A stretch of 64,000 bases of DNA from a virus (Duplodnaviria > Caudoviricetes). The notes below the pieces were generated by a model, which saw nothing but the letters and a program-made list of their open reading frames with translations, was not told where the DNA came from and ran no database searches. Where the stretch lies: the IMG/VR virus record IMGVR_UViG_3300042870_001240; one strand, written 5' to 3'. Each line of letters begins with the position of its first letter. Within the stretch, counting starts at the first letter, position 1. The position numbers and the translations under genes were made by a program. Below are positions 7,549 to 53,580 of this stretch, piece by piece.

Positions 7549-9480
7549 TTATTTTATTTTTATTTTCATTTTAGTACCAATTTCATTCTTCTCACAAGTA
7601 ATCTTAAACTTATGTTCTTCCAAGATTGCGACACAAATATTTAACCCTAATCCAGTCCCAGATTCTTTTTGTCCTTCTTTTCTTGTATAAGGTTTGGATA
7701 AATAATTAAAATCGTCTTGAGTAATACCTCTACCGTTATCTTGTATGTAAATTGAATCCTCATCACCATATACCTTAACAAACTTTGTTTCGGAGTCGTT
7801 ATATTTTAAACCATTCCTAATTAGATTATCAACTGCGGTACAGAACAACGGTTCATTAAGTTCAATGGTTGGTAAATTATCGTCTAATATCACCTGACTT
7901 ATATAAGCCGTTGATGATAAATAATCTGCAAGAATATTTTTTACATTACATTCGGTCTTGTTTAATACCACATCTTTCTTAACTAGATTGGTAAACTCAT
8001 AAACCCCTTTATAAACTTTTTGTGAGTGTTTAAGACCTTCCTTAATCATTTTAAGTGGTGCCTCAATTTTAAGGTTAGTAATATCTTCTTGGGATAATCT
8101 CCTTTCTAATGAATTAACCCCTCTTGGTATATAAGTATTAATCCCTGAGTGCATATCATGTCTTAATATTTTAGCCGCGTGTTCTAAGTAGGTATTTTTC
8201 TTTTCAATTTCCTTCTTTTGTTCATAAGAAGTAGTAATGTCTGTAGCGATTTTCATAACACGATAAATCTTACCATCAGTACCAATAATAGGATTGTAAG
8301 TCGCCTGTAGATATACTAAAGACCCGTCTTTTTTGACTCTAACAATTTCACCTGAAAATAACTCACCATTATTTAATTTTTCCCAAAAAAGAGAATAGTC
8401 ATCGCTTTTCGAATATTCATCGTCAATAAAAATTCTGTGGTGTTTTCCGACAACCTCATCTTGTGACGAATATCCCATAGTACCTAAAAACAAGTCATTC
8501 GCAAAAATAATGTTACCTTCTAAATCAAATTCAATAACGGCATTAGATTTGTTTATCGCATTCATTCTATTCCGAATCTCCATCTCTTTTTTCTTAAGTT
8601 CCGTAACGTCTTGTCTAATTGATGAAAACCCGTCTAACTTACCATTCTTATCGAATTTTGCTTTGATGAATGTGTCAACGTAATATAATTCTCCTGATTT
8701 TCCTTTATTGGTAACAACGTCATTCCATATTTCACCATTCATTACCGTCTTATACATCTTACCCCAATAACCGTCAGGTTGTAATCCCGAATTAACAATA
8801 ATATGGTCCTTGCCTTTTACTTCGTCTAAAGACCATCCAGAAACTTCCTCAAATTTTTTATTAACGTAGGTTATTTTACCGTATTTATCAGCAACCGAAA
8901 CAATTGCGGCACTATTTAAAAAATTTTCAGTTTCTTTATTTATTCTCAATAAATCATTTCCTTCTTTAACTGAATAAGTAAAACTATAAAGAGATGATAA
9001 TAGTTGTGCAAAATCAACCTCAGAACTATCCCACTCTCTAAGTGTTAGTGACTCAATACAAATTACCCCAATGGTTTCCCCTTTATAAATAATAGGAACA
9101 TCTAACATAGATTTTACCCCAAGAGGTTTTAAATACGTTTCGGTAAAACAAGAAGTCGCTTGGTGTATTTCGGCATCATTTGCAATGATAATTGGGTTTT
9201 CTAATAACGCTAAGAAATAGGATTGGAAATCTTTTTTATAAAGTGTTATGTCTTGATACCAACTGTTTTCAGATTTAATATGTAATTGTTCACATATAAT
9301 TTCAGACTTATCTTCATTGTATAACCATATTGAACACCTATCGGCATTTATTGATTCCGTAACTTCTTTAGTTAATACTTTAGCACCTTCAGTTGTATTA
9401 CCTTCATAAAATAAAGGATTGTGTGATTGGGAGATAAGTACCTTATTTAATTTTTTAGTATAGTCAAGATGTTTTATCAT
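7549..9480 (-). CDS. Soluble GAF-PAS-PAS sensor histidine kinase
   Basis: GAF (ADRCSIW..LDVPI), two PAS domains (ITYVNKKF; IIFANDLF), H-box RHDM, N-box NLIRNGLKY, DNGRG, GTGLGL. Confidence 0.92.
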   Translation of the reverse strand: MIKHLDYTKKLNKVLISQSHNPLFYEGNTTEGAKVLTKEVTESINADRCSIWLYNEDKSEIICEQLHIKSENSWYQDITLYKKDFQSYFLALLENPIIIANDAEIHQATSCFTETYLKPLGVKSMLDVPIIYKGETIGVICIESLTLREWDSSEVDFAQLLSSLYSFTYSVKEGNDLLRINKETENFLNSAAIVSVADKYGKITYVNKKFEEVSGWSLDEVKGKDHIIVNSGLQPDGYWGKMYKTVMNGEIWNDVVTNKGKSGELYYVDTFIKAKFDKNGKLDGFSSIRQDVTELKKKEMEIRNRMNAINKSNAVIEFDLEGNIIFANDLFLGTMGYSSQDEVVGKHHRIFIDDEYSKSDDYSLFWEKLNNGELFSGEIVRVKKDGSLVYLQATYNPIIGTDGKIYRVMKIATDITTSYEQKKEIEKKNTYLEHAAKILRHDMHSGINTYIPRGVNSLERRLSQEDITNLKIEAPLKMIKEGLKHSQKVYKGVYEFTNLVKKDVVLNKTECNVKNILADYLSSTAYISQVILDDNLPTIELNEPLFCTAVDNLIRNGLKYNDSETKFVKVYGDEDSIYIQDNGRGITQDDFNYLSKPYTRKEGQKESGTGLGLNICVAILEEHKFKITCEKNEIGTKMKIKIK

Positions 9481-16207: not shown

Positions 16208-17329
16208 TTAATTTGATAACGGTGCTTTTATACTTGGATGTGATTCATAGTTTTCTAGTATCACATCTCCAACTGAACTACAGAATATACCATCCCTAAC
16301 GTGTACCGTTGGTAACTTCATAGGTTCTCTACTAATTTGTTCTTTCGCCTGTTCAATATGATTTGAATATAAGTGAACGTCACCTAGATTACCAATCAAT
16401 TCATCAGGAACCATATTCATCTCATCGGCAATCATCATCAATAATAAACCGTATGATGCAATATTGAACGGTAGTCCAAGTAGTGTATCTACTGAACGTT
16501 GATTCCACATTAGAGAGATTGCTCGTTTAGGGTACCCATTATCATCTAACCATTTAGAGTATGAATAATCTCTATCCAGACTATCATTATGACCAAATAA
16601 ATCACATCTTCCTTTATGACTCAACTCTCTTGTATAAACTTGAAAACCATAATGACAAGGTGGAAGCACCATTTTATCTATCTCACCTACATTCCAAGCA
16701 TTAACCATTAATCGTCTTGAGTCTGGATTTGTTTTAAGGTCGTTGATTAGGTTTTGAATTTGGTCAATTGAATTATTTTGGTACGTTACTTTAACATCAT
16801 ATTTACTATAATCACCACCATCATGAATTAAGTCCATAACTTTAACTTTGTCAGAACTTTTTACATTTTCTAAATCATAATTTACTACATTCTTTCTTCC
16901 CCACTTTCTCCACTGCTTACCATAAATTGGACCTAATTCACCCCACTTCTCAGCAAACTCATCATCTGTTTTGATTTTGTTGATGAATTCTTCTATTGTT
17001 AAAAGTATAGGTCTAACTCCATACTCCCCAATTTTACTGCCTTCTTTAAGAATATAGTACTTATACGCATCACCATCCCAAATATGACAATTGTTATCAA
17101 CAAGGAATTTAATGTGTGTATCACCTCGTAAGAACCAAAGAAGTTCTGTTACAATTGATTTCCAAGCCATCTTTTTAGTTGTGAGTAAAGGAAACCCATC
17201 ACTCATTTTATGACGTATTTGTCTACCAAACACTGATAGTGTTCCCGTGCCTGTTCTGTCTTGTTTAGTCACTCCATTATCTAAGATGTCTTGAAGTAGG
17301 TCTGTGTATTGTTTATCTAATTTATTCAT
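16208..17329 (-). CDS. thyA: Thymidylate synthase with three insertions
   Basis: DRTGTGT, ELLWFLRG, LPPCH, QRSVD..LGLPFN, GDVHLYSNH. Confidence 0.97.
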   Translation of the reverse strand: MNKLDKQYTDLLQDILDNGVTKQDRTGTGTLSVFGRQIRHKMSDGFPLLTTKKMAWKSIVTELLWFLRGDTHIKFLVDNNCHIWDGDAYKYYILKEGSKIGEYGVRPILLTIEEFINKIKTDDEFAEKWGELGPIYGKQWRKWGRKNVVNYDLENVKSSDKVKVMDLIHDGGDYSKYDVKVTYQNNSIDQIQNLINDLKTNPDSRRLMVNAWNVGEIDKMVLPPCHYGFQVYTRELSHKGRCDLFGHNDSLDRDYSYSKWLDDNGYPKRAISLMWNQRSVDTLLGLPFNIASYGLLLMMIADEMNMVPDELIGNLGDVHLYSNHIEQAKEQISREPMKLPTVHVRDGIFCSSVGDVILENYESHPSIKAPLSN

Positions 17330-18530: not shown

Positions 18531-19106
18531 TTATACTTTTTTATCCGCCGGTATGGAATCCGTCAATGATACCGTAAGACCTTTTCCGTATTCGTCTTGT
18601 CTTGATGGTTTTGTTGTGACAACATAATTAGGGTAAGTAAGAACTGCTTGGTCTTTAAGTTTAACTTCAATTCCTTTTCTATCCAAGATTCCTTTAACGA
18701 ACCTTTCACCTGATAAACCTAATTTACCTATAGTAGGGATACCTTTATTACTTACAAAGAAAACCCAATTACCTTCTTCCTTTGTAATTAATTTGGCAAT
18801 ACTATTACCAACTTTCGCCACGTCATTACTTTCCCATTCTTTACTACTTTCATTATAAACATAACCTAATTCAGATTCTTTAGGTAATTTCATGTTAGTT
18901 TTTACCGCCTTATTATTATTTTTTTGTCCCCAAACATTGAAAGTATCCCCATTAGACACAAAATATAATTTATTCGCCATTGTGTTTTCGGAATAACCAT
19001 CCTTTCTTGAGAACACATAGTCATATGTTGGTTCTGATTGTTCTCTAATAACTCTTTTTACAATATTTGCTAAATCGGTTTCGGTTAATCTTATTATTTT
19101 TGTCAT
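18531..19106 (-). CDS. Leader-family protein (MTKIIRLTETDL)
   Basis: RLTE.DL..IVKRVI.EQ leader. Confidence 0.75.
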   Translation of the reverse strand: MTKIIRLTETDLANIVKRVIREQSEPTYDYVFSRKDGYSENTMANKLYFVSNGDTFNVWGQKNNNKAVKTNMKLPKESELGYVYNESSKEWESNDVAKVGNSIAKLITKEEGNWVFFVSNKGIPTIGKLGLSGERFVKGILDRKGIEVKLKDQAVLTYPNYVVTTKPSRQDEYGKGLTVSLTDSIPADKKV

Positions 19107-19189
19107 TCCCTATAATTTTATTTCAATAAATAGTTTGTTTTTAAGAAAAAAAGTTTTAGTTTTGTATTGTATCATTAAAACATATAAAA

Positions 19190-23601: not shown

Positions 23602-24045
23602 TTAGTATGAAACAAATCCATTTGCAATGTTATTGAATAAACTAAGTGCGTTTTTTTCATTTCCAATAAATTTTTCACGTTTCTGTACCGATTTAGGTGT
23701 GTAAAGAACACTGTAAAATAACACTCCTTGAGATTTATAAATCTCAAATTCTCCATATTCTAACTTTTTACCGTCCTTATAAAACTCCCAAGATAAAGGT
23801 TTTTTAATATCAAAACCACCTAAGTTTGTAATTCGAGCGTTAGGTGGAAGTTTAACAACAACTGATGATGAAATCGAATTGGGTTGTTTCCATATACCAT
23901 TTTTTCCTTTTGGATTCATATAGGATAAAAACATATCCAATGATTTTATTTCTTCAGGTGTTAATTTAGTATCAGATTGTTCCTCGATAACTCTTTTAAT
24001 GATGCGGGTTAAATCGTTTTCAGTTAGTCTTACTACTTTTTTCAT
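23602..24045 (-). CDS. Leader-family protein (MKKVVRLTENDL) located inside the IS remnant
   Basis: RLTE.DL leader; TATTTAT upstream. Confidence 0.75.
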   Translation of the reverse strand: MKKVVRLTENDLTRIIKRVIEEQSDTKLTPEEIKSLDMFLSYMNPKGKNGIWKQPNSISSSVVVKLPPNARITNLGGFDIKKPLSWEFYKDGKKLEYGEFEIYKSQGVLFYSVLYTPKSVQKREKFIGNEKNALSLFNNIANGFVSY

Positions 24046-24106
24046 AATTATATTTTTAATATAAATATCTATCAAAAAAAAAAACGATTTTTCTGAAAAA
24101 ATATTT

Positions 24107-25413: not shown

Positions 25414-25752
25414 TTATAGGTCTGTTAAAACCCAAGTTCTTTTACCATATACATTAACCCTAGGTGTTAGGTCGTTTAAATTATAGGTCTCTCCCAACCA
25501 TTGTTTTATAATATCCTCTATTTGTTTAGATTCCAACCCAAAAATGGATTTTAAAAACGACCAAATTTCATCGTTATTTATATAAACATCCCTATTTTTA
25601 TCATCATGATAATAGTAAAATAATATTAGTTTATTTTCATTAATATAAAATGTTTTACCATTTCTAACTATTGGTTTTAAATCACCAAACTTATCGTTAA
25701 ACCATTTCATGATTATCTGATTTATTCTATTTTCTGTTATTATATATTTCAT
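25414..25752 (-). CDS. MKYIITE leader-family protein
   Basis: Leader motif. Confidence 0.75.
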   Translation of the reverse strand: MKYIITENRINQIIMKWFNDKFGDLKPIVRNGKTFYINENKLILFYYYHDDKNRDVYINNDEIWSFLKSIFGLESKQIEDIIKQWLGETYNLNDLTPRVNVYGKRTWVLTDL

Positions 25753-25774
25753 TTCTTTAAATTAGTCAAAAATA

Positions 25775-27369: not shown

Positions 27370-27675
27370 TTATGCGGTAAATTCTACGGTAACACCAAAT
27401 TTATCTGAGAACCAATCTGAAATGAATTCATCTGCCTCGGAATTCTCGGCACCAAATAAAGACATAAAATTGTCTCTAATGTCGGAGTTAATGAATAATC
27501 TCCCATCACTATAATCATACTCAAAAAAAGGTTCTAAATTTTCAAAGTCATAATCATTACTGGTATTATATATTAAAATATACGTATCATGTCGTGTAAT
27601 ATTACTGGTGATATAACTGTTAAGAAAATTGGTTTTTAACTCGTGTATTCTATTTTCAGTGATGATGTAGTTCAT
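27370..27675 (-). CDS. MNYIITE leader-family protein
   Basis: Leader plus TATTTAT. Confidence 0.75.
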   Translation of the reverse strand: MNYIITENRIHELKTNFLNSYITSNITRHDTYILIYNTSNDYDFENLEPFFEYDYSDGRLFINSDIRDNFMSLFGAENSEADEFISDWFSDKFGVTVEFTA

Positions 27676-27705
27676 ATCATATAAATACCCCGTAATAAAA
27701 TATAG

Positions 27706-32644: not shown

Positions 32645-33265
32645 TTACCAAGCTTTACACGACCAATATCCTGGCGTTGTCTTATCTTTCTTCTCGGAAC
32701 ATTTATGTCTTGCTCTAAATGATTTTCTATGTGAAGGGATATCACGTTTAATTTCCATATTTGGGTCACCAAAATTAACCTTAACAACATTACCCTTGGA
32801 GTTCTTTACATATACAGACCTTTTCTTTGGTCCATCAGGAGTATAGAAAGGTTTATTCAATGTAACCTTACGTCCCTTGTATTCTGATTCTTGAATGGGT
32901 AGAATTTCAACGGAACCATATTGGTCCTCATATATTTTCTTACCTTTAATGTTTGGTAAATAAGATTCTGACTGAACATCGGAATCATCACCTTTAATCT
33001 CATTCATTAAGAAATCAAAAACTTGGTCCATATTGTTCTTAGCTTCAGAAATATGGTCTTGAGCCCAATCATGTCCGTTATTTAATATCTCCTCAATTTG
33101 ATTTTCATCAAAGTCCAATAGATATTCACATTGTCTCTTCATCTGTTGTAGATTTGAAAAGAACATATAACGATTATTACCTTCTTCGGTCATTTCGTTT
33201 TCTTCAACAACTCGTTTAACAATACGGGTTAAATCAGATTCGGTTAGTCTTACTATTTTTTTCAC
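32645..33265 (-). CDS. Leader-family protein (GTG start, KKIVRLTESDL) with a C-terminal RKSFRARH.C..YWSC module
   Basis: Leader plus a module I recognise from T4-like phage hypothetical proteins. Confidence 0.75.
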   Translation of the reverse strand: MKKIVRLTESDLTRIVKRVVEENEMTEEGNNRYMFFSNLQQMKRQCEYLLDFDENQIEEILNNGHDWAQDHISEAKNNMDQVFDFLMNEIKGDDSDVQSESYLPNIKGKKIYEDQYGSVEILPIQESEYKGRKVTLNKPFYTPDGPKKRSVYVKNSKGNVVKVNFGDPNMEIKRDIPSHRKSFRARHKCSEKKDKTTPGYWSCKAW

Positions 33266-33340
33266 GGTATATATTTGTTTATATATAAATATCAAACAAA
33301 TAAAAAAAGGGAGTTAAGATATTAACCCAAAAAAAGAGAA

Positions 33341-33931: not shown

Positions 33932-34441
33932 TTATAATTGATTTTTAAAATCACTGTATTCGTATGAAATTTTTCTTGGGTCAATTTCTGTCACATTAGC
34001 ACCAATTTTTTCAAATTGTTTTAATACCTTTTTGGCGTCATTTCTTGTTTCAGGTAATGCGGGATAGTCACCATTTAAAAAAAATTCAATATTATTTGAA
34101 TATTTATTAATATCAAATACTTTTGTAGCTCCTGTATCAACATCTTCAGTTGTCATCACAAATTCATTTTGATGATAACCTGCTCTTGGTGATTCAATAT
34201 TTACAATTCTAACTCTGTATGTTTGCTCATCCTGTTTTTTTACGACTATGGAGATTATATCCCTATCTTGATTTAAACCAAACTCTTTTCCATGTGATGC
34301 AAATCTATCGGCAAGTTTTGTATAACCTTTTTTATCAGCAATCTTAGAAGCTTTCTCATAGGTACTTTTATCAAGTTCACTAATGGTTTTCTTAACAATT
34401 CTAATTAAATCAGATTCCGTTAATCTTATAACTTTTTTCAT
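33932..34441 (-). CDS. MKKVIRLTESDL leader-family protein
   Basis: Leader plus TATTTAT. Confidence 0.75.
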   Translation of the reverse strand: MKKVIRLTESDLIRIVKKTISELDKSTYEKASKIADKKGYTKLADRFASHGKEFGLNQDRDIISIVVKKQDEQTYRVRIVNIESPRAGYHQNEFVMTTEDVDTGATKVFDINKYSNNIEFFLNGDYPALPETRNDAKKVLKQFEKIGANVTEIDPRKISYEYSDFKNQL

Positions 34442-34480
34442 AACAATTTTCTTTTATTATAAATATAACAAAACACCAAA

Positions 34481-34576
34481 AAAAGGGGGCGGGGGGGATT
34501 GACAACGACCGAAGGGAGTTCGGACGGTCTGGACTTATATTAAACAAAAAACCCCACCTGTATTAGAGAAGTGGGG
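34481..34576. repeat. ~95-bp structured intergenic repeat, copy 1
   Basis: Near-identical to 37303-37397; G-tract, CCGAA-GGGAG-TTCGG hairpin and CCCCAC..GTGGGG terminator. Confidence 0.85.
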
Positions 34577-34586
34577 TAGTATTATA

Positions 34587-35566: not shown

Positions 35567-36106
35567 TTAGATGGTAACATCATCTTTATGAGCAAGAACC
35601 TCTTCCACCCCCTCAATATCCTCTAAATAAGCACAACTAGTTGTATTTACCTTACAATTAAGAACCTCTTCAACCTTCAGTTGGCTATACGCCCATCCTA
35701 CGACAGTTGTGGTTACCTTACAGTTGAGGACCTCTTCCACCTGGCAATCTCCATTAAAATAGCCACACCGCGTTGTATTTACCTTACAGTTGAGGACCTC
35801 TTCCACCACTAGAGCGCGTGCTCGATTTATTACCAGCGTTGTATTTACCTTACAGTTGAGGACCTCTTCCACCCATTCGGACATAATCTTATCAAAATCA
35901 GGAGATTCCAAAGAAAAGAGAACAAAAAAACTCTTAAAGAAATCATATCTCCACCATAACTTACCCTCATTTTCATATTCAAAATACCAATACTTATTAT
36001 CTCTATCGATAAAGTATACACTGTCCTTATAAGAAATTATCTCGACCTTGGATAACTCCTTATAAAGTTTTTTGAATATAATATCTTTTAATCTATCTGA
36101 AACCAT
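35567..36106 (-). CDS. Repeat-array protein A: conserved N-terminal domain plus VEEVLNCKVNTT + 10 variable aa units
   Basis: Start MVSDRL after a TATATTTG promoter; paralog of 41453, 41993 and 52900. Confidence 0.85.
   Translation of the reverse strand: MVSDRLKDIIFKKLYKELSKVEIISYKDSVYFIDRDNKYWYFEYENEGKLWWRYDFFKSFFVLFSLESPDFDKIMSEWVEEVLNCKVNTTLVINRARALVVEEVLNCKVNTTRCGYFNGDCQVEEVLNCKVTTTVVGWAYSQLKVEEVLNCKVNTTSCAYLEDIEGVEEVLAHKDDVTI
35594..35873 (-). repeat. In-frame array A: 36-nt repeats with 30-nt unique spacers
   Basis: Repeats at 35838-35873, 35772-35807 (identical), 35706-35741, 35640-35675 and a partial ending at 35609; period exactly 66. Confidence 0.95.
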
Positions 36107-37275: not shown

Positions 37276-37302
37276 TTAAAATGATAGGTGGTGCACTTAA
37301 AT

Positions 37303-37397
37303 AAAAGGGGGCGGGGGGATTGACCACGACCGAAGGGAGTTCGGACGGTCTGGACTTATATTAAATAAAAACCCCCACCTGTATTAGAAAGTGGGGG
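37303..37397. repeat. ~95-bp structured intergenic repeat, copy 2
   Basis: 40-nt core identical to copy 1. Confidence 0.85.
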
Positions 37398-37466
37398 TTA
37401 TTTAAAAAAGTGGGGGTCGTGTTTATAGGAAATAAAAAACCCCTCTGTTGGGAGGGGTAATATTAT

Positions 37467-38084: not shown

Positions 38085-39188
38085 ATGAAAAAGTTTAGAG
38101 TACGAATGACTAATGTTTCGACAAGATTAGTTGATGGTGAAACACAAAAATGGCTGACATGTGAGGTGTCACTATCTTCCCTAATAGAAGCAAAAAGAAA
38201 ACTAGGGAAAGAATTATTTTCCGTAAATGTTAGAGGATGTTTATCTAACAGTAAACCAACAAGTCAAGAAAGGAAAAAACCTGTATTCAGAGGTATAATG
38301 AATACAATGGACAAGATAAGAAAAAACCCTGAAAAAGCTTATCTGCAAACTATGGGAAATAATGGTTGTACGATAATGTGTGGTTCTATTGAAAGAATAT
38401 CTGGTGATATCTATGAAATCACATTAACCCATGATTACCATGGAATTGGTAACGGTCAACAAACGATTTATATAACCGAGTGGATTGATACAAATTATCC
38501 AATAAGTAGTGATGTAACCATACTATGTAAAATGGCCATTGGACTTTCAGAGGATGACTGTAACGACATATGTAAGGCAAATAACACAAGTAACAAAATC
38601 GATAAGAAAGATATCAAATCCATAGAGTGGAAAAGAATAAGTATGGAACTTAAAACATTGGGTATAACTTTCAATTATAAAAAAGAAAAAGAAGGTCAAT
38701 ACCATATCGACATCTGTGCTGAAAATTACTATAATATGATTGGGGCATATTTCACAAACAAACCTTGGGTAAACGGCCAAGAAGTGGTCGATAAAATTAA
38801 ACCTAACATCATATCAGGAAAAGAGATGATTGAAATGGATAGGGTAAAGAAAATAATTGATGATTGGTTTGAAACCAATGATAATGAGGTTAAAAAACAT
38901 AGTAATAAAATGGATACTACAAGAATGGGTTATTTAAAGAACATTATGATTTCATTATACACGGATGTTAAGATACAAGCAAGAGTAAAACCATTTATAA
39001 AAAAATACGGAGATGTTAAATTTTTTGAACTAATCTTTAAAGTTGTTATAAACACCATAGAAGAAAACGAAACAACTAAAGTATCGTCAAATTATTTTAA
39101 TAAAAAAACATACGAATTATTAAGTAAATCTATTGAAGTAGAAATTTTAGAATCAGAAATTTTAAAATCAGAAACGGTCTTAGTTTAA
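38085..39188 (+). CDS. AIPR-like (ParB/Srx-fold) protein
   Basis: LFSVNVRG, NNGCTI, IGNGQQT, NNTSNKI..KD motifs in AIPR order. Confidence 0.7.
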   Translation: MKKFRVRMTNVSTRLVDGETQKWLTCEVSLSSLIEAKRKLGKELFSVNVRGCLSNSKPTSQERKKPVFRGIMNTMDKIRKNPEKAYLQTMGNNGCTIMCGSIERISGDIYEITLTHDYHGIGNGQQTIYITEWIDTNYPISSDVTILCKMAIGLSEDDCNDICKANNTSNKIDKKDIKSIEWKRISMELKTLGITFNYKKEKEGQYHIDICAENYYNMIGAYFTNKPWVNGQEVVDKIKPNIISGKEMIEMDRVKKIIDDWFETNDNEVKKHSNKMDTTRMGYLKNIMISLYTDVKIQARVKPFIKKYGDVKFFELIFKVVINTIEENETTKVSSNYFNKKTYELLSKSIEVEILESEILKSETVLV

Positions 39189-41183: not shown

Positions 41184-41452
41184 TTGATTATCTCATCTAT
41201 ACAATATTTTTCCACCATAACAATTTACCAATATGTCACCATAACAATGGGGAAATTATATGTAATGACGTATACCTTACTGTTGCACCCTCATATTTAA
41301 TATGTATCTACATATAATGGGGACCTGATATAAATGGGGGAATATGATTATGAAGGAATACCGTAGTGAATGAAATGAACGGGAGGGATGAGTGAGTAAT
41401 TATATTCTCTCATTTATTGTATAACTAAAATATTATTATTATCTTTGTGATT

Positions 41453-41989
41453 ATGGTTAGTGGTAGATTAAAGGATTTGATATTTAAGAAACTGTATAAA
41501 GATTTATCTCATGTAGAAATTATTGAGTATAAGGGTGAGATATGGTTTATTGATAGAAAGGAAAAGTTTTGGTATTTTATATATACTAAGTCTAATGGTC
41601 AGATGTGGTGGAGATATTCTTTCTTTACTCCTTTCTTTCTTCTTTTCTCTTTACCCTCTGATGAATTTACTCACATTCTTTCTTCTTGGGTGGAAGAGGT
41701 CTTAAATTGTAAGGTGACCACAACACTCAAGGTGGCTAATGTTAGGGAAGTTATGGTGGAAGAGGTCTTAAATTGTAAGGTGACTGAAACAGAAACCGTT
41801 ATTAATGGCTACCCCCTATCGGTGGAAGAGGTCCTAAATTGTAGGGTGACTACAACAATGGTGTCTATTGCTTCTTTACCAAAATCGGTGGAAGATGTCC
41901 TAAATTGTAGGGTGACTACAACAATGATAGACAGAGGTATTCCACGTCATGAGGTGGAAGAGGTTTTAAATAATAATATAAATAAATAA
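41453..41989 (+). CDS. Repeat-array protein B
   Basis: Same N-terminal domain as protein A; TATCTTTG promoter at 41440-41447. Confidence 0.85.
   Translation: MVSGRLKDLIFKKLYKDLSHVEIIEYKGEIWFIDRKEKFWYFIYTKSNGQMWWRYSFFTPFFLLFSLPSDEFTHILSSWVEEVLNCKVTTTLKVANVREVMVEEVLNCKVTETETVINGYPLSVEEVLNCRVTTTMVSIASLPKSVEDVLNCRVTTTMIDRGIPRHEVEEVLNNNINK
41689..41974 (+). repeat. In-frame array B: 36-nt repeats with 30-nt spacers
   Basis: Repeats start at 41689, 41755, 41821, 41887 and 41953 (partial); period 66. Confidence 0.95.
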
Positions 41990-41992
41990 GAT

Positions 41993-42688
41993 ATGGTTAG
42001 TGATAGATTAAAGGATTTGATATTTAAGAAACTGTATAAAGATTTATCTCGTGTAGAGATTATTCATTATAAAACTTATATATGGTTTATCGATAGAGAG
42101 GATAAGTGTTGGTATTTCAGGTATGATAAATCTGACGGCACACTCTTATGGAGATATTATTTCTTCATGGATTTTTTTACCCTCTTTACGATGAGTTCCA
42201 TCGAATTTGTTCCCATCATATCTTCTTGGGTGGAACAGGTTATAAATAATAAGGTAACTATAACTCGCAACAAGATGACTTCATTTCCAGACGATATTGA
42301 AGATGCCTTAAATTGTAAAATGGTGGAAGAGGTAATAAATCATAAGGTTTCATTCGACTTAGGATATTCCATTTCTACCCTTTGTGAGGTGGAAGATGTC
42401 CTAAATCATAAGGTAACTAAACCAGATGGTGTCATTGCACTATATAATCCGATTGAAGAGCATCATAAGGTGGGATTAACTTTAGGACCTTCCCTTCCCC
42501 AATATGAAATGGTGGATGAGGTCCTAAATCATAAGGTAACTAAAACAGATGGAGCGATTGCATGGAGCGGTCCGATAGAAGAGGCTCTAAATAATAAGGT
42601 AAATACGACCGAAGATGAAATAGATAACAACATACGTGACCACCTCCTCAACCTTCAGCTGGCTATACGCCCATCCTACGACAGGTGA
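41993..42688 (+). CDS. Repeat-array protein C (degenerate units)
   Basis: Repeat starts at 42229, 42295, 42322, 42388, 42451, 42511, 42574; the tail is an inverted copy of an array A unit. Confidence 0.85.
   Translation: MVSDRLKDLIFKKLYKDLSRVEIIHYKTYIWFIDREDKCWYFRYDKSDGTLLWRYYFFMDFFTLFTMSSIEFVPIISSWVEQVINNKVTITRNKMTSFPDDIEDALNCKMVEEVINHKVSFDLGYSISTLCEVEDVLNHKVTKPDGVIALYNPIEEHHKVGLTLGPSLPQYEMVDEVLNHKVTKTDGAIAWSGPIEEALNNKVNTTEDEIDNNIRDHLLNLQLAIRPSYDR
42642..42687 (+). repeat. 43/46-nt copy of 35664-35709, antisense to its host gene
   Basis: acctc[c/t]tcaaccttcag[c/t]tggctatacgcccatcctacgacag[g/t]tg. Confidence 0.95.
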
Positions 42689-42693
42689 AGATT

Positions 42694-43437
42694 TTAAACC
42701 ATATTAACTTTATTTTGCCATAACCCAAAAAAATCAGAATTTTTTATTACAATAGACCAACGCTCTATTTCTGATTTTCGATTTGACATATCTATTTCTT
42801 TTCTTGATGATGATGGTAGTTTAATTATGGTAGATAATTCGGAACTTGATAATTTAACATTTGGTGTTAAAAATATTTGTCTCCACATATAAAGGTCACT
42901 CCAAATATTTTTTGGTGCAGGTCTCCATCCAAACTTTAATTTTCTGTATAAATCCATTGTATGGGATGCTCCTGTTAAACTAATTTCATTTTGTTTAGGT
43001 TTTAAGTGATAATCAACCCATTTTTTATCTTTTAAATTAACCCTTGAAACCGTTAAGATATTATTTGGATATACTAAAACAGGTAATGGATGTGTAAAAT
43101 CACTATCAACTAACATATCTCTCATTACCTCAACATGTTTAGATAGTAAAAGGTCATCATCCCCAAGATAAGTAACTATGTCTGATTTTGATTCTGAAAC
43201 TATTCTATGTCTTGCAACTTCATTTCGACTTATTCTTTTTGGCTCATCCTCAAATCTAACTCTATTATCAGTTTTAATTATATCACTAATAACATCTCTT
43301 GTGTCATCAGTAACACCATCACCAATGATTACAATATCCAAATTATCAACCGTTTGGTTTTGAGCACTCTCAACTGAATATTTAAGTGTTGTGGGGTGAT
43401 TATGTGTCGGTATAACCACCATTACAGAATTTGACAT
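42694..43437 (-). CDS. Glycosyltransferase family 2
   Basis: VVIPTHNH..L..SV.SA..Q, IIGDG, YLGDDD. Confidence 0.85.
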   Translation of the reverse strand: MSNSVMVVIPTHNHPTTLKYSVESAQNQTVDNLDIVIIGDGVTDDTRDVISDIIKTDNRVRFEDEPKRISRNEVARHRIVSESKSDIVTYLGDDDLLLSKHVEVMRDMLVDSDFTHPLPVLVYPNNILTVSRVNLKDKKWVDYHLKPKQNEISLTGASHTMDLYRKLKFGWRPAPKNIWSDLYMWRQIFLTPNVKLSSSELSTIIKLPSSSRKEIDMSNRKSEIERWSIVIKNSDFFGLWQNKVNMV

Positions 43438-44005: not shown

Positions 44006-45598
44006 TTAGTTAAGATAATTTAAATCTTCATCCTCTTCTAACCCATTGTAGGCGTAAGTTTGGAAGTTAGCGTTTGTATCAACCCAAGCCATTGACCTGA
44101 ATGTAACACCATCATTAATCCTAAGTTTCTCTATCTCTAATTGTTTTAACTTATGATGTAATTCTTTTTTTATAAGTTGGATTTCTTTATCTTTGGAGTA
44201 TGCTAAATTTTCTGATTCATCGGTATCATTAATTAAATCATATAATTCATACTGAGTCTCGTAACTATTTAATGCGTCAAAATAATAAGTATACTTCCAT
44301 CCTTTAGTACGAATGGTTCTTAATCTATTACAAGTTTTAACTGATGACGATAAATTGTTTGACCCTGATTTAGTATCATCAAATGTGAATAGGATTTCAT
44401 TTTGTGCTGGTTCGTTATTCTCGATAATTGGTAGTAAGTTTACACCTCTACAATCAGATGGAACAGGAAGATTAACAAAATTAGATAACGTTGGTAATAT
44501 ATCAATTAACGTAGCAAGTTCGTGGGATGATTTATGTTTCAATGTTGTTGGAAATACAACAGGGTTTGATATGACCATTGGTATTCTAATTGCTTCCTCA
44601 TAAGCAACGAACGCTTTTTGTCTCATTCCACCATGTGACATTCCCATTTCTCCATGGTCTGCCAATCTAATAACGATGGCATCATTTGCCAAGTTAATAC
44701 CATCTTCTTTATTATATAGAACATCAATTACTTTACCTATCTCACCATCAATCTTTTTAAGTAGGAACGCATAAAAGTTTAAGTAATCTAACTTCATATC
44801 ATCATTCTTTAATACCCCTAATAGACCATCTGCGGCAATATTTGTTTGGAATTGGGCAATAGGTTTTGCGTTTTCTATTAAATTTTCATTCACAGTTGTT
44901 GGTAGATTTGGAATGTCTCTTCCTGTATAGTCAGGCTCATTATATCCATACTGTATTGAGTTTGGATATCCTAACACATCATGCGGATTAACTAAACTTA
45001 ACACTATACAATATGGTTGCATGTCACCATTTTTTCTTCTAACTTTAACTTGTTCAAGATATTCCATGGTCTGTTCGATATACATGGCATCATGATTGGC
45101 AAATCCTCCACCAAAATTTTCGGGTTTCGCGTCTTCGCCAGCGTCAGGACCAACCCATCCTTTAAATCCAAATAGTGCTATGTCTTTTGCTAATGGGTCA
45201 CCACCATCGGTGCCCTTACTAAGATGCCATTTTCCTCTGTATTGAACATCATAACCAATACCATCCAATATTCTTCCTATATTTGGTGTTTGGTTATTTA
45301 ATTGTGGTTCTACAGGTGAAAAAACACCTCCTGATGTTAATGTTTGTGTTACTTGATGTTGAGCAGGATAAGTTCCTGTGAACAATGTTGAGCGGCTAGG
45401 AGAACACATACAACTGTTACAAAAAGCTCTTTCAAAACTAAATCCATTTTCTTTTAAAAAGGTTAGTGTTGGTAGATTTTCTTTTTCCCAATTGTCAGGA
45501 AAATGTTGTGTGGCTCTTTCTTGGTCGGTGATGATAAATATAATATCTGGTTGAGTAGGTAACTCAGATAAATTTTGTTTAAAGTTATTTTGTTTCAT
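44006..45598 (-). CDS. Cys-type (formylglycine-dependent) sulfatase
   Basis: IFIITDQ, CSPSRSTLFTG, GKWH, DHGEM, YEE.IRIP; no signal peptide. Confidence 0.92.
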   Translation of the reverse strand: MKQNNFKQNLSELPTQPDIIFIITDQERATQHFPDNWEKENLPTLTFLKENGFSFERAFCNSCMCSPSRSTLFTGTYPAQHQVTQTLTSGGVFSPVEPQLNNQTPNIGRILDGIGYDVQYRGKWHLSKGTDGGDPLAKDIALFGFKGWVGPDAGEDAKPENFGGGFANHDAMYIEQTMEYLEQVKVRRKNGDMQPYCIVLSLVNPHDVLGYPNSIQYGYNEPDYTGRDIPNLPTTVNENLIENAKPIAQFQTNIAADGLLGVLKNDDMKLDYLNFYAFLLKKIDGEIGKVIDVLYNKEDGINLANDAIVIRLADHGEMGMSHGGMRQKAFVAYEEAIRIPMVISNPVVFPTTLKHKSSHELATLIDILPTLSNFVNLPVPSDCRGVNLLPIIENNEPAQNEILFTFDDTKSGSNNLSSSVKTCNRLRTIRTKGWKYTYYFDALNSYETQYELYDLINDTDESENLAYSKDKEIQLIKKELHHKLKQLEIEKLRINDGVTFRSMAWVDTNANFQTYAYNGLEEDEDLNYLN

Positions 45599-46282: not shown

Positions 46283-46609
46283 TTAAATCCCCTCTCTTTC
46301 TTTATACATCTTAATAATCCTGTCTCTATAATGATTTTCCAATTCATTGTGTATTTCATCATACCAAAACTCATCTTCAGGTAATGTGCTCACAAATCTC
46401 CAGTGAAATGAATCCATCATCATGGATATTGTTGTATATGTAAGTTCTAAAAAAGTTTTTGATAGAAGTTTTCTTCTTTTTATTATATCATACGCATTAT
46501 TAAAAGATTCAATAAATTCCTTTTCTATCTCATCCGCAGGAACTCTTCTTCTTATCCTTGGAGATAATTCTTCCCTTAATATTCTTCTTATGGATTCTTT
46601 TAGGTTCAT
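46283..46609 (-). CDS. MNLKESIRRILREE leader-family protein
   Basis: First 42 nt identical to those of 46611-47180. Confidence 0.75.
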   Translation of the reverse strand: MNLKESIRRILREELSPRIRRRVPADEIEKEFIESFNNAYDIIKRRKLLSKTFLELTYTTISMMMDSFHWRFVSTLPEDEFWYDEIHNELENHYRDRIIKMYKEREGI

Positions 46610-46610
46610 A

Positions 46611-47180
46611 TTATTCTTGAGTTAAATATTCGTCCATAATGTCAATAACCTCATCGGTTACATTTGGTATGTCAGATATCTCATAATCATAATTCCATAG
46701 GAAATTGTCTTCCATATCGTATATTCCATTTTCAGGTGAGTAATAAACTATGTTTAAATTAAAGTTATTAATATCATTTGATATTTCCACAAAATAATCT
46801 AATGCTTTTTCTTTACTACCATCAAAGTCATATCCTAATGTTTGTGTTACAGTACCCCAATCCCAAACACCTTCATCTAATCTTGATAAAATAAATATTT
46901 CACCTTCGGTTTCCATTCCTGTAATACCTTTCTTATTCTTCTTTGGTTTTCTTTGTATGATAACCGCGTGTTTCTTTTGATGGTAATCTTCCCATTCTCC
47001 CCTATCATCATTAATACACCACTGACATCTATGAGCATATTTTTGTAGTGCTCTGTGACTTAATGGGACGATAACAATAATGTTATTGTCTTTATATAAT
47101 TCAACTCTCTCTTCTCTTGGGACTCGAACCTCAGTTAGTTCTTCCCTTAATATTCTTCTTATGGATTCTTTTAGGTTCAT
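46611..47180 (-). CDS. MNLKESIRRILREE leader-family protein
   Basis: Leader; body contains Y....WCI. Confidence 0.75.
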   Translation of the reverse strand: MNLKESIRRILREELTEVRVPREERVELYKDNNIIVIVPLSHRALQKYAHRCQWCINDDRGEWEDYHQKKHAVIIQRKPKKNKKGITGMETEGEIFILSRLDEGVWDWGTVTQTLGYDFDGSKEKALDYFVEISNDINNFNLNIVYYSPENGIYDMEDNFLWNYDYEISDIPNVTDEVIDIMDEYLTQE

Positions 47181-48427
47181 ATCATACTTTGTTTAATCTT
47201 ATCCCCCACTTGTTGGAAGAATTCAAATAGTGACTCTTCAAGTTCATCATCAAACTCTTCATAATCATCACCGTTGTGTAAATCAAATGAATGGACGTTT
47301 AAATCTTCATCGGTATACATTGTTGCATAATATTTTTCACCGTCAATAAAGAATTCACCTGTGTGTTTAAATTCCACAGGGTCATCATCCCATTCCTCAG
47401 TTTCATCATAAATGAATTTAACATCATACCCATCAACAGTGTCATCAAATTCGTAACCTGAGTCAATACTAGCAATATCAGACACCTCGTCATCTTCAAT
47501 ATCCTGAGATTTGTTATCAAGGTATTTTCTTTCCGCACCACTTAAAGAATCAATACCATAAGTATTAATTTTATCTAAGATACGATTGGTTAATTCATCA
47601 TTCTCATTGATGATACTTATCATTGTCTTCATACCTTTTTGCGTATATCCCGCCCAATATTTTTCTGTAAGTTCACCTTCTTTTATTTCTTCTTGTTTAC
47701 CCATATGACTAAATACTTTTCTTATATCTTTGGGTAAATCGTTAATTGGTATTAGTTTTGCGTTGATTGTTTTTAATTTGTGTCTTACCGCCTTTTGTGC
47801 TCTGTGGTGTCCGTCTATAATTGATATGAATTCACCATCATTATCAACAAATATTAATATTGGGTATTGTAAGTCGGCACTATCTATTTTTATAATTTCT
47901 TCTTCATCACCATCCCAACTTAATAGGTGTGGTTTTAATTCTTCTACTGAAAATCTTTCTACAGGAATATCTTCGGTCGCGTTTAGTAAATCCATAAGGG
48001 TTACTTTGTCACCCTCATCATTTTGCCAAGATGTATCGTGTAATCCTTCTTTCATTCCTTTGGTTTTTCTTTTTGATGCTTCTTTTTTGGATTCAATATA
48101 TTCAAATGCGGTTCTTAATCTTTTCTTTACTTCAGGGTCTTTCGCTCTTTCTAACGCAACTCTTAATCTCTGATGTATAAGATTAATTATTTGTGATTGT
48201 CTAGCGTGAGACTTGGACTTAAAACTTTCTTTATTTAAAGTATCAACAATATCTTGTTTTGTTTTAAACTTTACCGACACAGTATCACTTGGATTTTCAT
48301 CTGTATATAATCTTCTATCGGAACCTTCAGGTTTTTTACCTGTCCCAACCTTTGGGTCACTTTCATTAATTACTCTTTTAACTAATGAAATAAGTTCTGA
48401 TTCTGTTAGTGTTATTATTTTTTTCAT
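47177..48427 (-). CDS. Modular leader-family protein (MKKIITLTE) with a ParB/Srx-like module
   Basis: YPILI...IIDGHHR; modules separated by (M/I/L)xE sites. Confidence 0.75.
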   Translation of the reverse strand: MKKIITLTESELISLVKRVINESDPKVGTGKKPEGSDRRLYTDENPSDTVSVKFKTKQDIVDTLNKESFKSKSHARQSQIINLIHQRLRVALERAKDPEVKKRLRTAFEYIESKKEASKRKTKGMKEGLHDTSWQNDEGDKVTLMDLLNATEDIPVERFSVEELKPHLLSWDGDEEEIIKIDSADLQYPILIFVDNDGEFISIIDGHHRAQKAVRHKLKTINAKLIPINDLPKDIRKVFSHMGKQEEIKEGELTEKYWAGYTQKGMKTMISIINENDELTNRILDKINTYGIDSLSGAERKYLDNKSQDIEDDEVSDIASIDSGYEFDDTVDGYDVKFIYDETEEWDDDPVEFKHTGEFFIDGEKYYATMYTDEDLNVHSFDLHNGDDYEEFDDELEESLFEFFQQVGDKIKQSMI

Positions 48428-48985: not shown

Positions 48986-49390
48986 TTATCTGTTATATGG
49001 TCTAAACCTTGCTGGGTTTGCTTTTATTGCCGACTTTGGGAATCTTAATCCAACCCCCTGTTGTCTTGCGTTTTTTAATGTTCTCGCATATTCAGTTAAT
49101 TCCTCATTTCCCATATCATCAATAGCCTTTACAAATTTATGACATTTTTCAGACACACCACCCTTTTCGTGGTCGGTTATTGATATCTTTACTTTGTTGT
49201 AATTTATTTCAATATCGGGATGATGGTTTTGTTGTTCAGCAATTTTTGCAACTTTATTAACGAAGTCAATTGATTCATTAAAATCTTTAAATTTAAAAGT
49301 TCTTTCTAATTTTTGTTTTGAATCTCCCCAACCTTTGGATTCATTAACCGTTTCCCTTAATGCTTTTCTTATGTGTTCTTGTAGGTTCAT
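48986..49390 (-). CDS. Leader-fused pterin-4a-carbinolamine dehydratase (PCD)
   Basis: LERTFKFKDF.E..DFV.KVA.IAE..NHHPDI....KV. Confidence 0.85.
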   Translation of the reverse strand: MNLQEHIRKALRETVNESKGWGDSKQKLERTFKFKDFNESIDFVNKVAKIAEQQNHHPDIEINYNKVKISITDHEKGGVSEKCHKFVKAIDDMGNEELTEYARTLKNARQQGVGLRFPKSAIKANPARFRPYNR

Positions 49391-49392
49391 AA

Positions 49393-50166
49393 CTATTTTA
49401 TTTCAGGAAGTTTAGTGTCTTTAATAAATTTACTATGTGATGCTTTATATGATTTTTGTGTCTCATCGTTAGAATCTTTAGTATATTGCCAGTTCCAATA
49501 TAAACTATCGTTTGGTTTGAATCCGTAGAATTCGTGCACTTCTTTTTGTGTTTTAGTAACATTCTCACCATTCCAATTCTGTCCAACACAAATGAACCCT
49601 GTTTCAATATCTTTGATAATGTTAGACTCTCCTAACGTTGTGTGTCTGTTTTCCAACCAATTTAATCTTTCAATTAAATTTTGGTAATACATATTTGTCT
49701 GTCCCCATCTTATTGAACTAAAGAATATTACCGCATCAGATTCAAATAACTCTTTTGATATCTTCCATAATTCATCTGATGGTTCATTGATATTAACCCA
49801 ACATCTGTGGTTTCCTGATGGGTTCTTTTTTTTGTCTTTAAGGATTGCTTTTAATAACCCACAACTGTTCCCATCCTTTCTTGATACATTACCCTCACAA
49901 GGTAATATCTTAAGTTCTGGAACGTCAATTAAAACTGATTTATCTCCCAATTCATCATTGAGATACATGGCTATCATCTTGGACTTTGGTATGTCTATAT
50001 TGTCCTCATCAAAGTTATATCTGTTGGAACAACTTAATAGTAATACTTTCTTTTTTTTCTTAAGAATATCTAATGTTTGTTTGATTGACTTCCATGCGTC
50101 CGACTGAACCATTTCCTCGGAAATCATCATCTCTCTTATCCTTTGTATATTTTCTTGTAGGTTCAT
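49393..50166 (-). CDS. Leader-fused flavodoxin-like / NADPH-dependent FMN reductase-family protein
   Basis: LLSCSNR, ILPCEG, DELWKI..EL..SDAVIFFSSIRWG...L.ERL. Confidence 0.75.
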   Translation of the reverse strand: MNLQENIQRIREMMISEEMVQSDAWKSIKQTLDILKKKKKVLLLSCSNRYNFDEDNIDIPKSKMIAMYLNDELGDKSVLIDVPELKILPCEGNVSRKDGNSCGLLKAILKDKKKNPSGNHRCWVNINEPSDELWKISKELFESDAVIFFSSIRWGQTNMYYQNLIERLNWLENRHTTLGESNIIKDIETGFICVGQNWNGENVTKTQKEVHEFYGFKPNDSLYWNWQYTKDSNDETQKSYKASHSKFIKDTKLPEIK

Positions 50167-52030: not shown

Positions 52031-52531
52031 TTAAAACGTTTCTATTAAATTTAAAACAATTCTTAGAATATCATCTATTGTTTTTTCAGTTAAATCTTCA
52101 TATCTAACAGGAAATTCTCCGAGAAGACTTTCGTTTTCATGTCCACCCCATCTATCAACTACAACATAGTTAATACCCAGATAAACTATTTCTTGGTATT
52201 CCGTATTCATTTCTCTGTAAGGAATTGGTTCTTCATCAAAATCGTATAAACTACTACCTCCTATACGTTTAAGACAATCTTTGATGGTTTTAATCTTTAA
52301 ACTATTCTGTATTTGATAATCACCTAATAACTTAATCAAATTATCATATCCATCAACAAGTTTTGACGTAGTTTCAATTCCGTTTCGGTCAAGAACTTTT
52401 ATTATGTCTTCTTTGAAACCCTCGTTGATTGTTTCTTCTTGTAAATTTATGAAATTATCATCACTTAATTTATCGGCAGTAACTAAACCCATTATCTTTT
52501 GTATTCTATGTATGTCTTCTTGTAGGTTCAT
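52031..52531 (-). CDS. MNLQEDIHRIQKIM leader-family protein
   Basis: Leader motif. Confidence 0.75.
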   Translation of the reverse strand: MNLQEDIHRIQKIMGLVTADKLSDDNFINLQEETINEGFKEDIIKVLDRNGIETTSKLVDGYDNLIKLLGDYQIQNSLKIKTIKDCLKRIGGSSLYDFDEEPIPYREMNTEYQEIVYLGINYVVVDRWGGHENESLLGEFPVRYEDLTEKTIDDILRIVLNLIETF

Positions 52532-52584
52532 ATTATTGAATATATAATAATAAATATTATAATAATCATTATATTTATTATCAT

Positions 52585-52899: not shown

Positions 52900-53580
52900 T
52901 TATTTTATTGATTCTATTAAAACCCCATTTTGAATGATGTCTTTTGGGAAAAAATCACGCTTTGACAATTCGGTATATTTCACCCCATTTTGAATGGTAT
53001 CTTCAACAAAGGAGTCGTTCAAAAAATTATAGATATTGGCGTGTTTCACCCCAATTTGAATGGTATTTTCAACGACAACGTTTGTAATGAACTCTACTCC
53101 TGTGGTGTTCTTCACACCATTTTGAATGGTATTTTCAACCTCTCTATCAAAATCTTCCGACCAATTATACTCATTAGGAATTTCATTTGTCCACGTATTT
53201 TTAATACCATCTTCAATAACTCTCCCAACAATAGGAATATTACCACCAATAACCCCTTCGGTTTCTTTTATACCGTTTTCAATAATACTAATAACCCCTT
53301 CTTCAAAAACAAACTTATTACCACTAATCGATAGTGGTTTATTCAAAATATTCTTAGTAAACCAATCAGTAATATATTCACTATTCTCAGTCACATTCAA
53401 TGACACAAAATTAAAAACATTATTAAATAATGAGTAATTATACCATAAGACATTCTCTTTAGTATATTCAAAAACCCATCTTTTTTCTTCGGTAAAAATA
53501 AACCACATTGACCCATTGTGATTGTAAATGTCAACACCTTTTAATTCTTTGTTTATTAATTGATTTATTGCTCGTTTCAT
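52900..53580 (-). CDS. Repeat-array protein D: divergent paralog with VENTIQNGVKxT + 10 aa units
   Basis: N-terminal domain aligns with proteins A-C; units start at 53139, 53073 and 53007 (period 66). Confidence 0.8.
   Translation of the reverse strand: MKRAINQLINKELKGVDIYNHNGSMWFIFTEEKRWVFEYTKENVLWYNYSLFNNVFNFVSLNVTENSEYITDWFTKNILNKPLSISGNKFVFEEGVISIIENGIKETEGVIGGNIPIVGRVIEDGIKNTWTNEIPNEYNWSEDFDREVENTIQNGVKNTTGVEFITNVVVENTIQIGVKHANIYNFLNDSFVEDTIQNGVKYTELSKRDFFPKDIIQNGVLIESIK

Follow-up and report, generated by a model that had tools for sequence, protein, structure and literature searches.

Known arrays and precedents

Type VI-B CRISPR arrays have repeats of 36 nt with GUUG and CAAC ends and spacers of 30 nt, give a 66-nt crRNA and lack cas1 and cas2 (10.1101/092577). 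Compact arrays without cas genes are also known from huge phages (PMC7162821). Virus-borne cas-less mini-arrays and solitary repeat units (Racr) are presumed to use or block the host's Cas proteins and have a median of about six repeats per array (PMC7162821, PMC10651486, PMC11656645). According to reviews, mini-arrays copy host repeats and are non-coding (PMC11656645). In the survey of viral repeat mimics the ORFs were masked, and there was no type VI repeat among the viral repeat units (PMC10651486). With this masking, arrays like that of gene P0001 described here would therefore have been missed or discarded as false positives.

Besides these arrays, there is off-target ('neo-CRISPR') integration by Cas1-Cas2 at repeat-like sites, in which the repeat is precisely duplicated on both sides of a new spacer at a site that is not a CRISPR. 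Experiments with bacterial chromosomes and plasmids have revealed it; we are not aware of a description of it as a trait that recurs and is maintained in a phage gene family. A further precedent comes from cyanobactin precursors of the patE type, where constant segments that are conserved at synonymous sites flank short hypervariable in-frame cassettes.

We analysed a stretch of 64,000 nt from a virus of the Caudoviricetes (IMG/VR: IMGVR_UViG_3300042870_001240), here called the window. Its gene P0001 carries an array that resembles the type VI-B and II-C arrays of Bacteroidota in the 36+30 = 66-nt unit, the G[G/T]TG...ACAAC ends, the central A/U-rich hairpin region and the absence of adjacent cas1/cas2. 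Unlike type VI-B arrays, the phage array is fused to a gene and translated, its 5' end is GGUG instead of GUUG and its fold is weak. Moreover, no Cas13b was found in the related phage genomes or among the larger ORFs of the window that were checked, and no protospacers were found. With the cas-less viral mini-arrays and Racr it shares phage-encoded repeats without adaptation or interference genes, but those are non-coding and identical or near-identical to host repeats, whereas in P0001 the repeat coincides with the gene's 3' end and the array forms an ORF. Neo-CRISPR integration would yield the same precise duplication of a repeat-like sequence around a new spacer. The patE-type precursors differ from the phage locus, which has no tailoring enzymes and has CRISPR-like geometry and ends as well as untranslated sister arrays. 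An array that forms the translated tail of a gene was not found described in the literature searched.

Gene P0001 and its repeat array

Five repeats with an exact period of 66 nt start at 41689, 41755, 41821, 41887 and 41953 (41689-41989, + strand), all of them inside the ORF of P0001. The gene is composed as follows:

41453..41989, + strand: gene P0001, about 178 amino acids, N-terminal domain and then the in-frame repeat-spacer array (ORF and translation)
41453..41688, + strand: coding region of the N-terminal domain, at the position of a CRISPR leader; the last codon, Trp (TGG), gives the G before repeat 1
41689..41724, + strand: repeat 1, 36 nt, GGTGGAAGAGGTCTTAAATTGTAAGGTGACCACAAC, which also codes for the end of the domain's last helix (69-85); top 36-mer of the window with 27.3 bits (matrix from bacterial CRISPR repeats)
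41725..41754, + strand: spacer 1, 30 nt, unique, in frame and stop-free; no exact match in viral contigs
41755..41790, + strand: repeat 2
41791..41820, + strand: spacer 2
41821..41856, + strand: repeat 3, CTA/AGG variant
41857..41886, + strand: spacer 3; its sole outside similarity is a low-complexity match of 25/30 in a related phage, judged to be chance
41887..41922, + strand: repeat 4, CTA/AGG variant, GAT for GAG
41923..41952, + strand: spacer 4, peptide MIDRGIPRHE, which is also found at the last spacer position of the homolog P0030
41953..41989, + strand: repeat 5, degenerate distal repeat with the stop codon (41987-41989)

The array scores 160-166 in Tandem Repeats Finder and is far beyond chance. 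Its 36-nt repeats and 30-nt spacers agree with the generic CRISPR geometry of near-identical repeats of 23-50 nt and unique spacers of constant length. Each unit encodes the peptide V-E-E-V-L-N-C-K/R-V-T-T-T and ten variable residues, and spacers 1-4 are mutually unrelated. Repeats 1-2 are GTCTTAAATTGTAAGGT and repeats 3-4 are GTCCTAAATTGTAGGGT, which differ by T>C at position 14 (TTA>CTA, synonymous, Leu) and A>G at position 24 (AAG>AGG, Lys to Arg). The initial annotation of this DNA had reported the five repeats and their period, the four unique spacers, both base changes with one of them non-synonymous, and a first array in a paralog on the opposite strand (P0003, listed below); all of these were found again here.

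We propose, with about an even chance of being right, that this is a cas-less CRISPR-like array that continues a small jumbo-phage gene in frame at its 3' end, with units added by CRISPR-type integration and a transcript that acts as guide or decoy. The 36-nt repeat is reiterated together with unrelated 30-nt cassettes at the 66-nt period, and each unit would be added by an integration that precisely duplicates the repeat. The likeliest agent would be Cas1-Cas2 of the host (Bacteroidota) acting on the repeat-like phage sequence, since no cas1 turned up in five related phage genomes. The transcript may supply or mimic the crRNAs of host 36+30 systems (type VI-B Cas13b, or II-C), and translation through the array would be a second, protein-level use of the 22-residue modules.

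Alternatively, the array could be a purely protein tandem repeat with modules of 22 residues (12 constant and 10 hypervariable), for example a variable binding or anti-defence tail, in which concerted evolution by gene conversion and unequal crossing-over keeps the repeats alike and the CRISPR geometry is a coincidence. We regard this as a tentative possibility on the unlikely side, and the evidence that bears on it is found on both sides in the following sections.

The claimed compensatory change in the repeat hairpin

In the initial annotation the joint change of positions 14 and 24 from T-A to C-G was taken to preserve the stem of a hairpin, and the repeat was suggested to be constrained as a nucleic acid as well as a peptide. 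The two co-occurring changes have no statistical weight alone, because they are one event common to two adjacent repeats. The covariation alignment comprised 186 distinct repeat variants from the window and 40 IMG/VR loci, which were found by protein or by repeat pattern. Among these variants the pair 14-24 is TA in 133, CA in 28, TG in 15 and CG in four (Fisher p=0.75). C at position 14 is thus opposite A, a mismatch, 28 times and opposite G only four times, and G at position 24 is mostly opposite T.

The fraction of paired bases was compared with a codon-aware null, in which synonymous codons were permuted among units with the identical residue at that position. For the pair 14-24 the fraction is 0.817 observed vs 0.815 under the null (p=0.51), and for the whole six-pair stem it is 0.857 vs 0.855 (p=0.38). 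The outer stem pair is an A.G mismatch in 86 of the 186 variants, and the neighbouring paralog P0002, 500 nt downstream, reads GTC CTA AAT CAT AAG, i.e. C opposite A. The structure predicted by RNAfold for the whole repeat at 41689 (-2.4 kcal/mol) leaves the CTTA/TAAG stem unused. Covariation at the terminal pair 3-32 (p=0.001) was rejected, as it arises from one sub-family (GTT type) with a different register.

Judged by this alignment, the CTTA/TAAG hairpin in the P0001 clade is under no detectable selection. The stem-preserving covariation held up neither in the larger alignment nor against the codon-aware null, a comparison that the initial annotation had itself put forward. The compensatory pair as originally stated does not itself matter, because it is unsupported.

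The repeat as a 36-nt nucleotide unit

The information profile of the units has a sharply bounded block of 36 nt, from -1 to +35, which opens with the base preceding the Val codon and closes at the second position of codon 12. At -1, 153 of 158 units have G irrespective of the amino acid encoded, and position 36, the third base of Thr12, carries 0.08 bit, i.e. it is a free wobble. A block that is out of codon register and has such sharp ends argues against a purely protein repeat.

Codon usage was analysed in loci chosen by protein similarity only, with the phage's own codon usage as background. In these loci 93% of units have G directly before the repeat (background 14%), Val1 is GTG in 88% (12%), K8 is AAG in 93% (22%) and T11 is ACA in 100% (41%), and T12 is as in the background. 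The adjacent Glu codons are fixed oppositely, with GAA in 95% for E2 and GAG in 94% for E3 (GAG background 26%), and opposite fixed codons for neighbouring identical residues again speak against selection on the protein alone.

The 36-nt element G[G/T]TG...ACAAC is also the 3'-terminal segment of the gene, where it codes for W-V-E-E-V-L-N-x-K-V-x-T-T. Because of the out-of-register 36-nt block, the fixed synonymous sites and the identical untranslated copies in sister genes, a constraint on the repeat at the nucleotide level, as a unit of processing, integration or recombination and in addition to its coding of the peptide, is supported by these sequence comparisons. This part of the original suggestion stands, and the hairpin as its basis does not.

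Untranslated sister arrays and the paralog family

Sister genes, among them those of related complete jumbo-phage genomes, have arrays of this kind that lie out of frame and are not translated. The sister arrays are:

G003:C1:274857-275037, - strand: three repeats identical at 36/36 positions, 29-nt spacers; the ORF ends in repeat 2
G002:C1:1021-1264, - strand: four to five repeats, spacers of 31, 30 and 30 nt; the ORF ends in spacer 1
L012:5185-5294, + strand: untranslated array with identical repeats

The spacers of these arrays are 29-31 nt long and the ORFs stop in spacer 1 or repeat 2 (G003, G002 and L012). Compared with the reading frame, the GTTG end and the ACAAC end of L012 have both moved by 1 nt, which keeps the 36-nt G[G/T]TG...ACAAC unit. 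Repeats that are identical at 36/36 positions out of frame or past a stop codon are difficult to reconcile with a purely protein repeat. The three sister genes begin with MK(Y/I)(I/L)ITES; a MKYIITE-type N-terminal leader was also observed on many other paralogs of the N-terminal domain.

Within the window, further copies of the gene and its array are found at the following positions:

41993..42688, + strand: paralog P0002, with an eroded array (repeats 42229 to about 42610), starting 3 nt after the P0001 stop
42654..42683, - strand: inverted copy (29/30) of the spacer 35676-35705 and the start of the following repeat, forming the C-terminal tail of P0002
35567..36106, - strand: paralog P0003, the 'first' in-frame array, repeats 35640-35873 and a degenerate fifth
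52900..53580, - strand: divergent paralog P0004, array with 66-nt period of GTTGAAAATACCATTCAAAATGG... repeats (52972-53139)

The repeat peptide of P0004 is V-E-N-T-I-Q-N-G-V-K-N-T. A divergent paralog keeps I-x-N-G-V-K-x-T at a period of 22 residues with varied codons, which is a point for a purely protein repeat.

P0002 ends in a tail that is reverse-complementary to spacer 3 of the opposite-strand array and to the first 12 nt of the next repeat. The similarity of 42654-42683 to 35676-35705 (29/30) was considered as a self-target; this reading was rejected in favour of an inverted array fragment, because the match continues into the next repeat. The inverted fragment suggests recombination between the oppositely oriented arrays, which are 7 kb apart.

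The N-terminal domain family has 10-15 paralogs per genome, clustered near genome or contig ends. Members were noted in the window at 25414-25761 (-) and 27370-27705 (-), in G002 at 1-9 kb, in G003 at 288-309 kb and in G004 at 0.4-10 kb. The members of the domain family all end in W-V-E-x-x-L-x-x-x-V, and the 'repeat' is therefore the gene's own 3' end. A large protein-domain family thus has this repeat as its conserved C-terminal segment, which is in favour of a purely protein repeat. Many paralogs of the N-terminal domain are without an array and end in W-(V/L/F)-x-x-x-(L/F)-x-x-x-V. More than 1100 metagenomic homologs of P0001 were found, none with a Pfam domain, and its relatives are on IMG/VR viral contigs of 4.8-309 kb.

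Translation of the array and the N-terminal domain

A generic CRISPR array is non-coding, whereas the array of P0001 lies in an open reading frame. Of 1278 spacer codons, one is an in-frame stop; 6.4% would be expected, and the other five frames have 4-9%. Each of the 198 adjacent periods measures 66 nt and the remaining periods are multiples of three. For bacterial arrays of the same class, 25% of spacers are 29 nt long and about 65% are stop-free in a given frame. Spacers shared between arrays have 10 synonymous and 9 non-synonymous changes vs 22% synonymous expected (p=0.004; 19 changes only), and the base composition of the spacers by codon position resembles that of the phage's genes. On the evidence of frame and codons, the array of the P0001 clade is kept open, in frame and translatable. 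The strictly kept frame, the avoidance of stops, the excess of synonymous change in shared spacers and the gene-like composition are all points for a purely protein repeat.

The N-terminal 78 residues are a real domain, with differences between homologs by codon position of 13963/8685/22082 and an AlphaFold2 pLDDT of 86-91 for residues 1-86. The last helix of this domain is encoded by repeat 1. Over the whole repeat region the pLDDT is <40 with 79 aligned sequences; the region is predicted to be disordered, a point against a purely protein repeat. Neither Pfam nor PHROG contains a family that matches the array proteins, and fold searches with the N-terminal domain (PDB Foldseek, VIA wide, AFDB clusters) and the ESM Atlas gave no convincing match (best Z 5.1).

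Integration and coding could also be joined. CRISPR-type integration may have been co-opted to diversify a translated phage protein, each spacer being a cassette of 10 residues between constant segments of 12 residues; insertions that are in frame and stop-free would be selected and the peptide then conserved, so that the locus would be an array and a cassette-mutagenised protein at once. We consider this unlikely.

Spacers and array turnover

Spacer identity is bimodal: pairs of spacers are either <=18/30 identical, which is no better than shuffled sequence, or >=24/30 identical, and none fall between. A protein repeat that grew by duplication and divergence would give intermediate spacer similarity, and none was seen. 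In 45 array pairs the upstream, gene-proximal spacers are unique and the downstream spacers shared, vs nine pairs with the reverse (pairs are not independent), and the distal repeats are degenerate. Both novelty at the leader end and decay of the distal repeats are present, as in CRISPR arrays. The GC content of the spacers is 40% vs 31.6% for the loci; bacterial spacers of this class have 41.5%.

No protospacers were found in the phage database, the viral contigs, three whole related genomes or the window, searched mostly with exact or near-exact criteria in what is a small part of sequence space. The exact 28-nt cores of two gene-proximal spacers were unmatched in viral contigs, and a nucleotide search of 38-46 kb and 35-54 kb against a phage collection gave no match. 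The match of spacer 3 to a glycosyltransferase gene of G002 (25/30) was rejected as chance (low complexity, E about 0.01 per genome).

In 19 metagenome runs from lake water between 2020 and 2024, some possibly from the source sample or one campaign, the P0001 and P0002 arrays at 41400-42700 are nearly unchanged (0.96-0.98 of sampled words); there was no RNA run among the public runs listed for this locus. Turnover is therefore not fast, and the arrays of this strain are stable on the 2020-2024 time scale.

Relation to bacterial CRISPR repeats and cas genes

When 36-nt G[G/T]TG...ACAAC repeats separated by 30-nt spacers were sought by pattern, at least 120 bacterial loci were detected, mostly of Bacteroidota among the matches listed. 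Of eight large flanking ORFs tested, five are Cas13b (loci L114, L042, L049, L097 and L105), and one other bacterial locus of this repeat class has Cas9. With a weight matrix from 34 bacterial CRISPR repeats (GTTG...ACAAC), the phage repeats take the first 12 places among about 128,000 window positions, and their register is exact, starting at 41689; with the central 27 matrix columns alone, 41689 ranks fourth in the window. The best identity to a bacterial repeat is 26-27/36 (at most about 72%) among the matches listed from 80 bacterial loci, with nine positions forced by the pattern. Metagenomes were scanned for a host array with a repeat version that begins with GTTG, and only phage gene arrays in which one repeat has Leu for Val were found.

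The repeats linked to Cas13b, whose conserved fold combines a terminal stem and an internal hairpin with a U-rich loop, fold at -9 to -12 kcal/mol into one common structure, vs -2.4 kcal/mol and a different structure for the repeat at 41689. The repeats of L012 and of the window at 53139 fold as a terminal stem with an internal hairpin, like the Cas13b-linked repeats. The 5' end is GGUG in the P0001 array (3/4 terminal pairs) and GUUG in the sister clades, and the 3' end ACAAC is kept. Rfam gave nothing relevant, with the gathering threshold on the whole window and in E-value mode on 41400-42700.

Cas13b and Cas1 were not found in five related phage genomes, two of which are complete (294 and 309 kb); as a positive control, the Cas13b search detects the gene in three bacterial genomes. 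In the window no cas-like ORF was found among the larger ORFs checked. One of the related genomes (G003, complete, 309 kb) encodes a Cas12f1-like/TnpB-like protein of 448 amino acids (PF07282 E=2.6e-20, and OrfB_IS605), followed by a bona fide non-coding CRISPR array of the class of these bacterial repeats; the locus is L171:3500-5299 (= G003:C1:292000-293800, - strand). In that array 4-5 copies of GTTGGGAATCATCACAATTTGAAAGGTAGTTACAAC are separated by stop-containing spacers of 30, 29 and 30 nt, and the repeat is 30/36 identical to a repeat of Sphingobacterium alkalisoli (L048). A Cas12f-like effector as the general partner of the gene arrays was rejected, as it is present in 1/5 related genomes only and absent from the window.

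The likeness to bacterial repeats would also be expected of an RNA decoy similar to Racr, in which the repeats mimic host CRISPR repeats and sequester Cas13b or another Cas protein, the spacers are filler, and translation only prevents premature termination or couples the next gene. This is consistent with repeats of a Bacteroidota class, with cas genes not found in the related phage genomes searched and with the P0001 stop 3 nt before the start of the next gene. Repeat mimics are moreover an established anti-CRISPR strategy of phages, and the published search, which masked ORFs, had no type VI (PMC10651486). Against it, similarity to host repeats is only about 70% among the matches listed whereas the described mimics are near-identical and a mimic would be expected to reach about 90% or more, the repeat of the P0001 clade does not have the Cas13b repeat fold, sister loci tolerate untranslated arrays between genes, and polar cassette turnover with purifying selection on the spacer peptides is unexpected of filler. 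We therefore hold a pure decoy to be quite improbable.

A RiPP-like multi-core precursor of the cyanobactin patE type, with a long leader and then hypervariable 10-residue cores flanked by conserved recognition sequences, would fit the leader with repeated constant and variable modules and the conservation of the constant parts at the nucleotide level next to hypervariable cassettes, but it is very improbable given that no tailoring-enzyme genes were seen in the vicinity, where the genes encode a glycosyltransferase, an epimerase, a sulfatase and an AIPR protein, the 10-residue cores have no conserved residue at all, sister arrays are untranslated, and the 80-residue 'leader' is a folded domain that is found in many array-less paralogs.

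Other features of the window

Two copies (89% identical, 2.8 kb apart) of a G+C-rich element of 100 nt are located at 34478-34577 and 37299-37398, in a surrounding of 31% GC. The sequence of the element is AAAGGGGGCGGGGGGGATTGAC...GGGAGTTCGGACGG...CCCCACCTG...GTGGGG, and no Rfam family matches it at threshold.

Proteins encoded elsewhere in the window include Hsp70/DnaK (1719-3590, - strand), a GAF-PAS histidine kinase (7549-9480, - strand), a sulfatase (44006-45598, - strand), thymidylate synthase (16208-17329, - strand) and an AIPR/Abi-like protein (38085-39188, + strand). This content is usual for very large phages.

Several families of direct repeats of about 60-100 nt cover the starts and upstream regions of - strand genes, at 19057-19152, 23996-24091, 33216-33311 and 34392-34487 and at 46562-46625, 47133-47196, 49343-49406 and 52484-52547. 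They suggest that genes which otherwise differ share N-terminal leader peptides and promoters.

Implications

In this phage gene family the 3' end of the gene itself behaves like a CRISPR repeat, and one clade translates its array in full. If it is host adaptation enzymes that build the arrays, phage genomes would be natural and recurrent sites of off-target integration. A viral mimic or guide donor of the type VI class would be seen here for the first time if the RNA engages Cas13b. Finally, if the peptides matter, the locus would link CRISPR-style acquisition to protein diversification.
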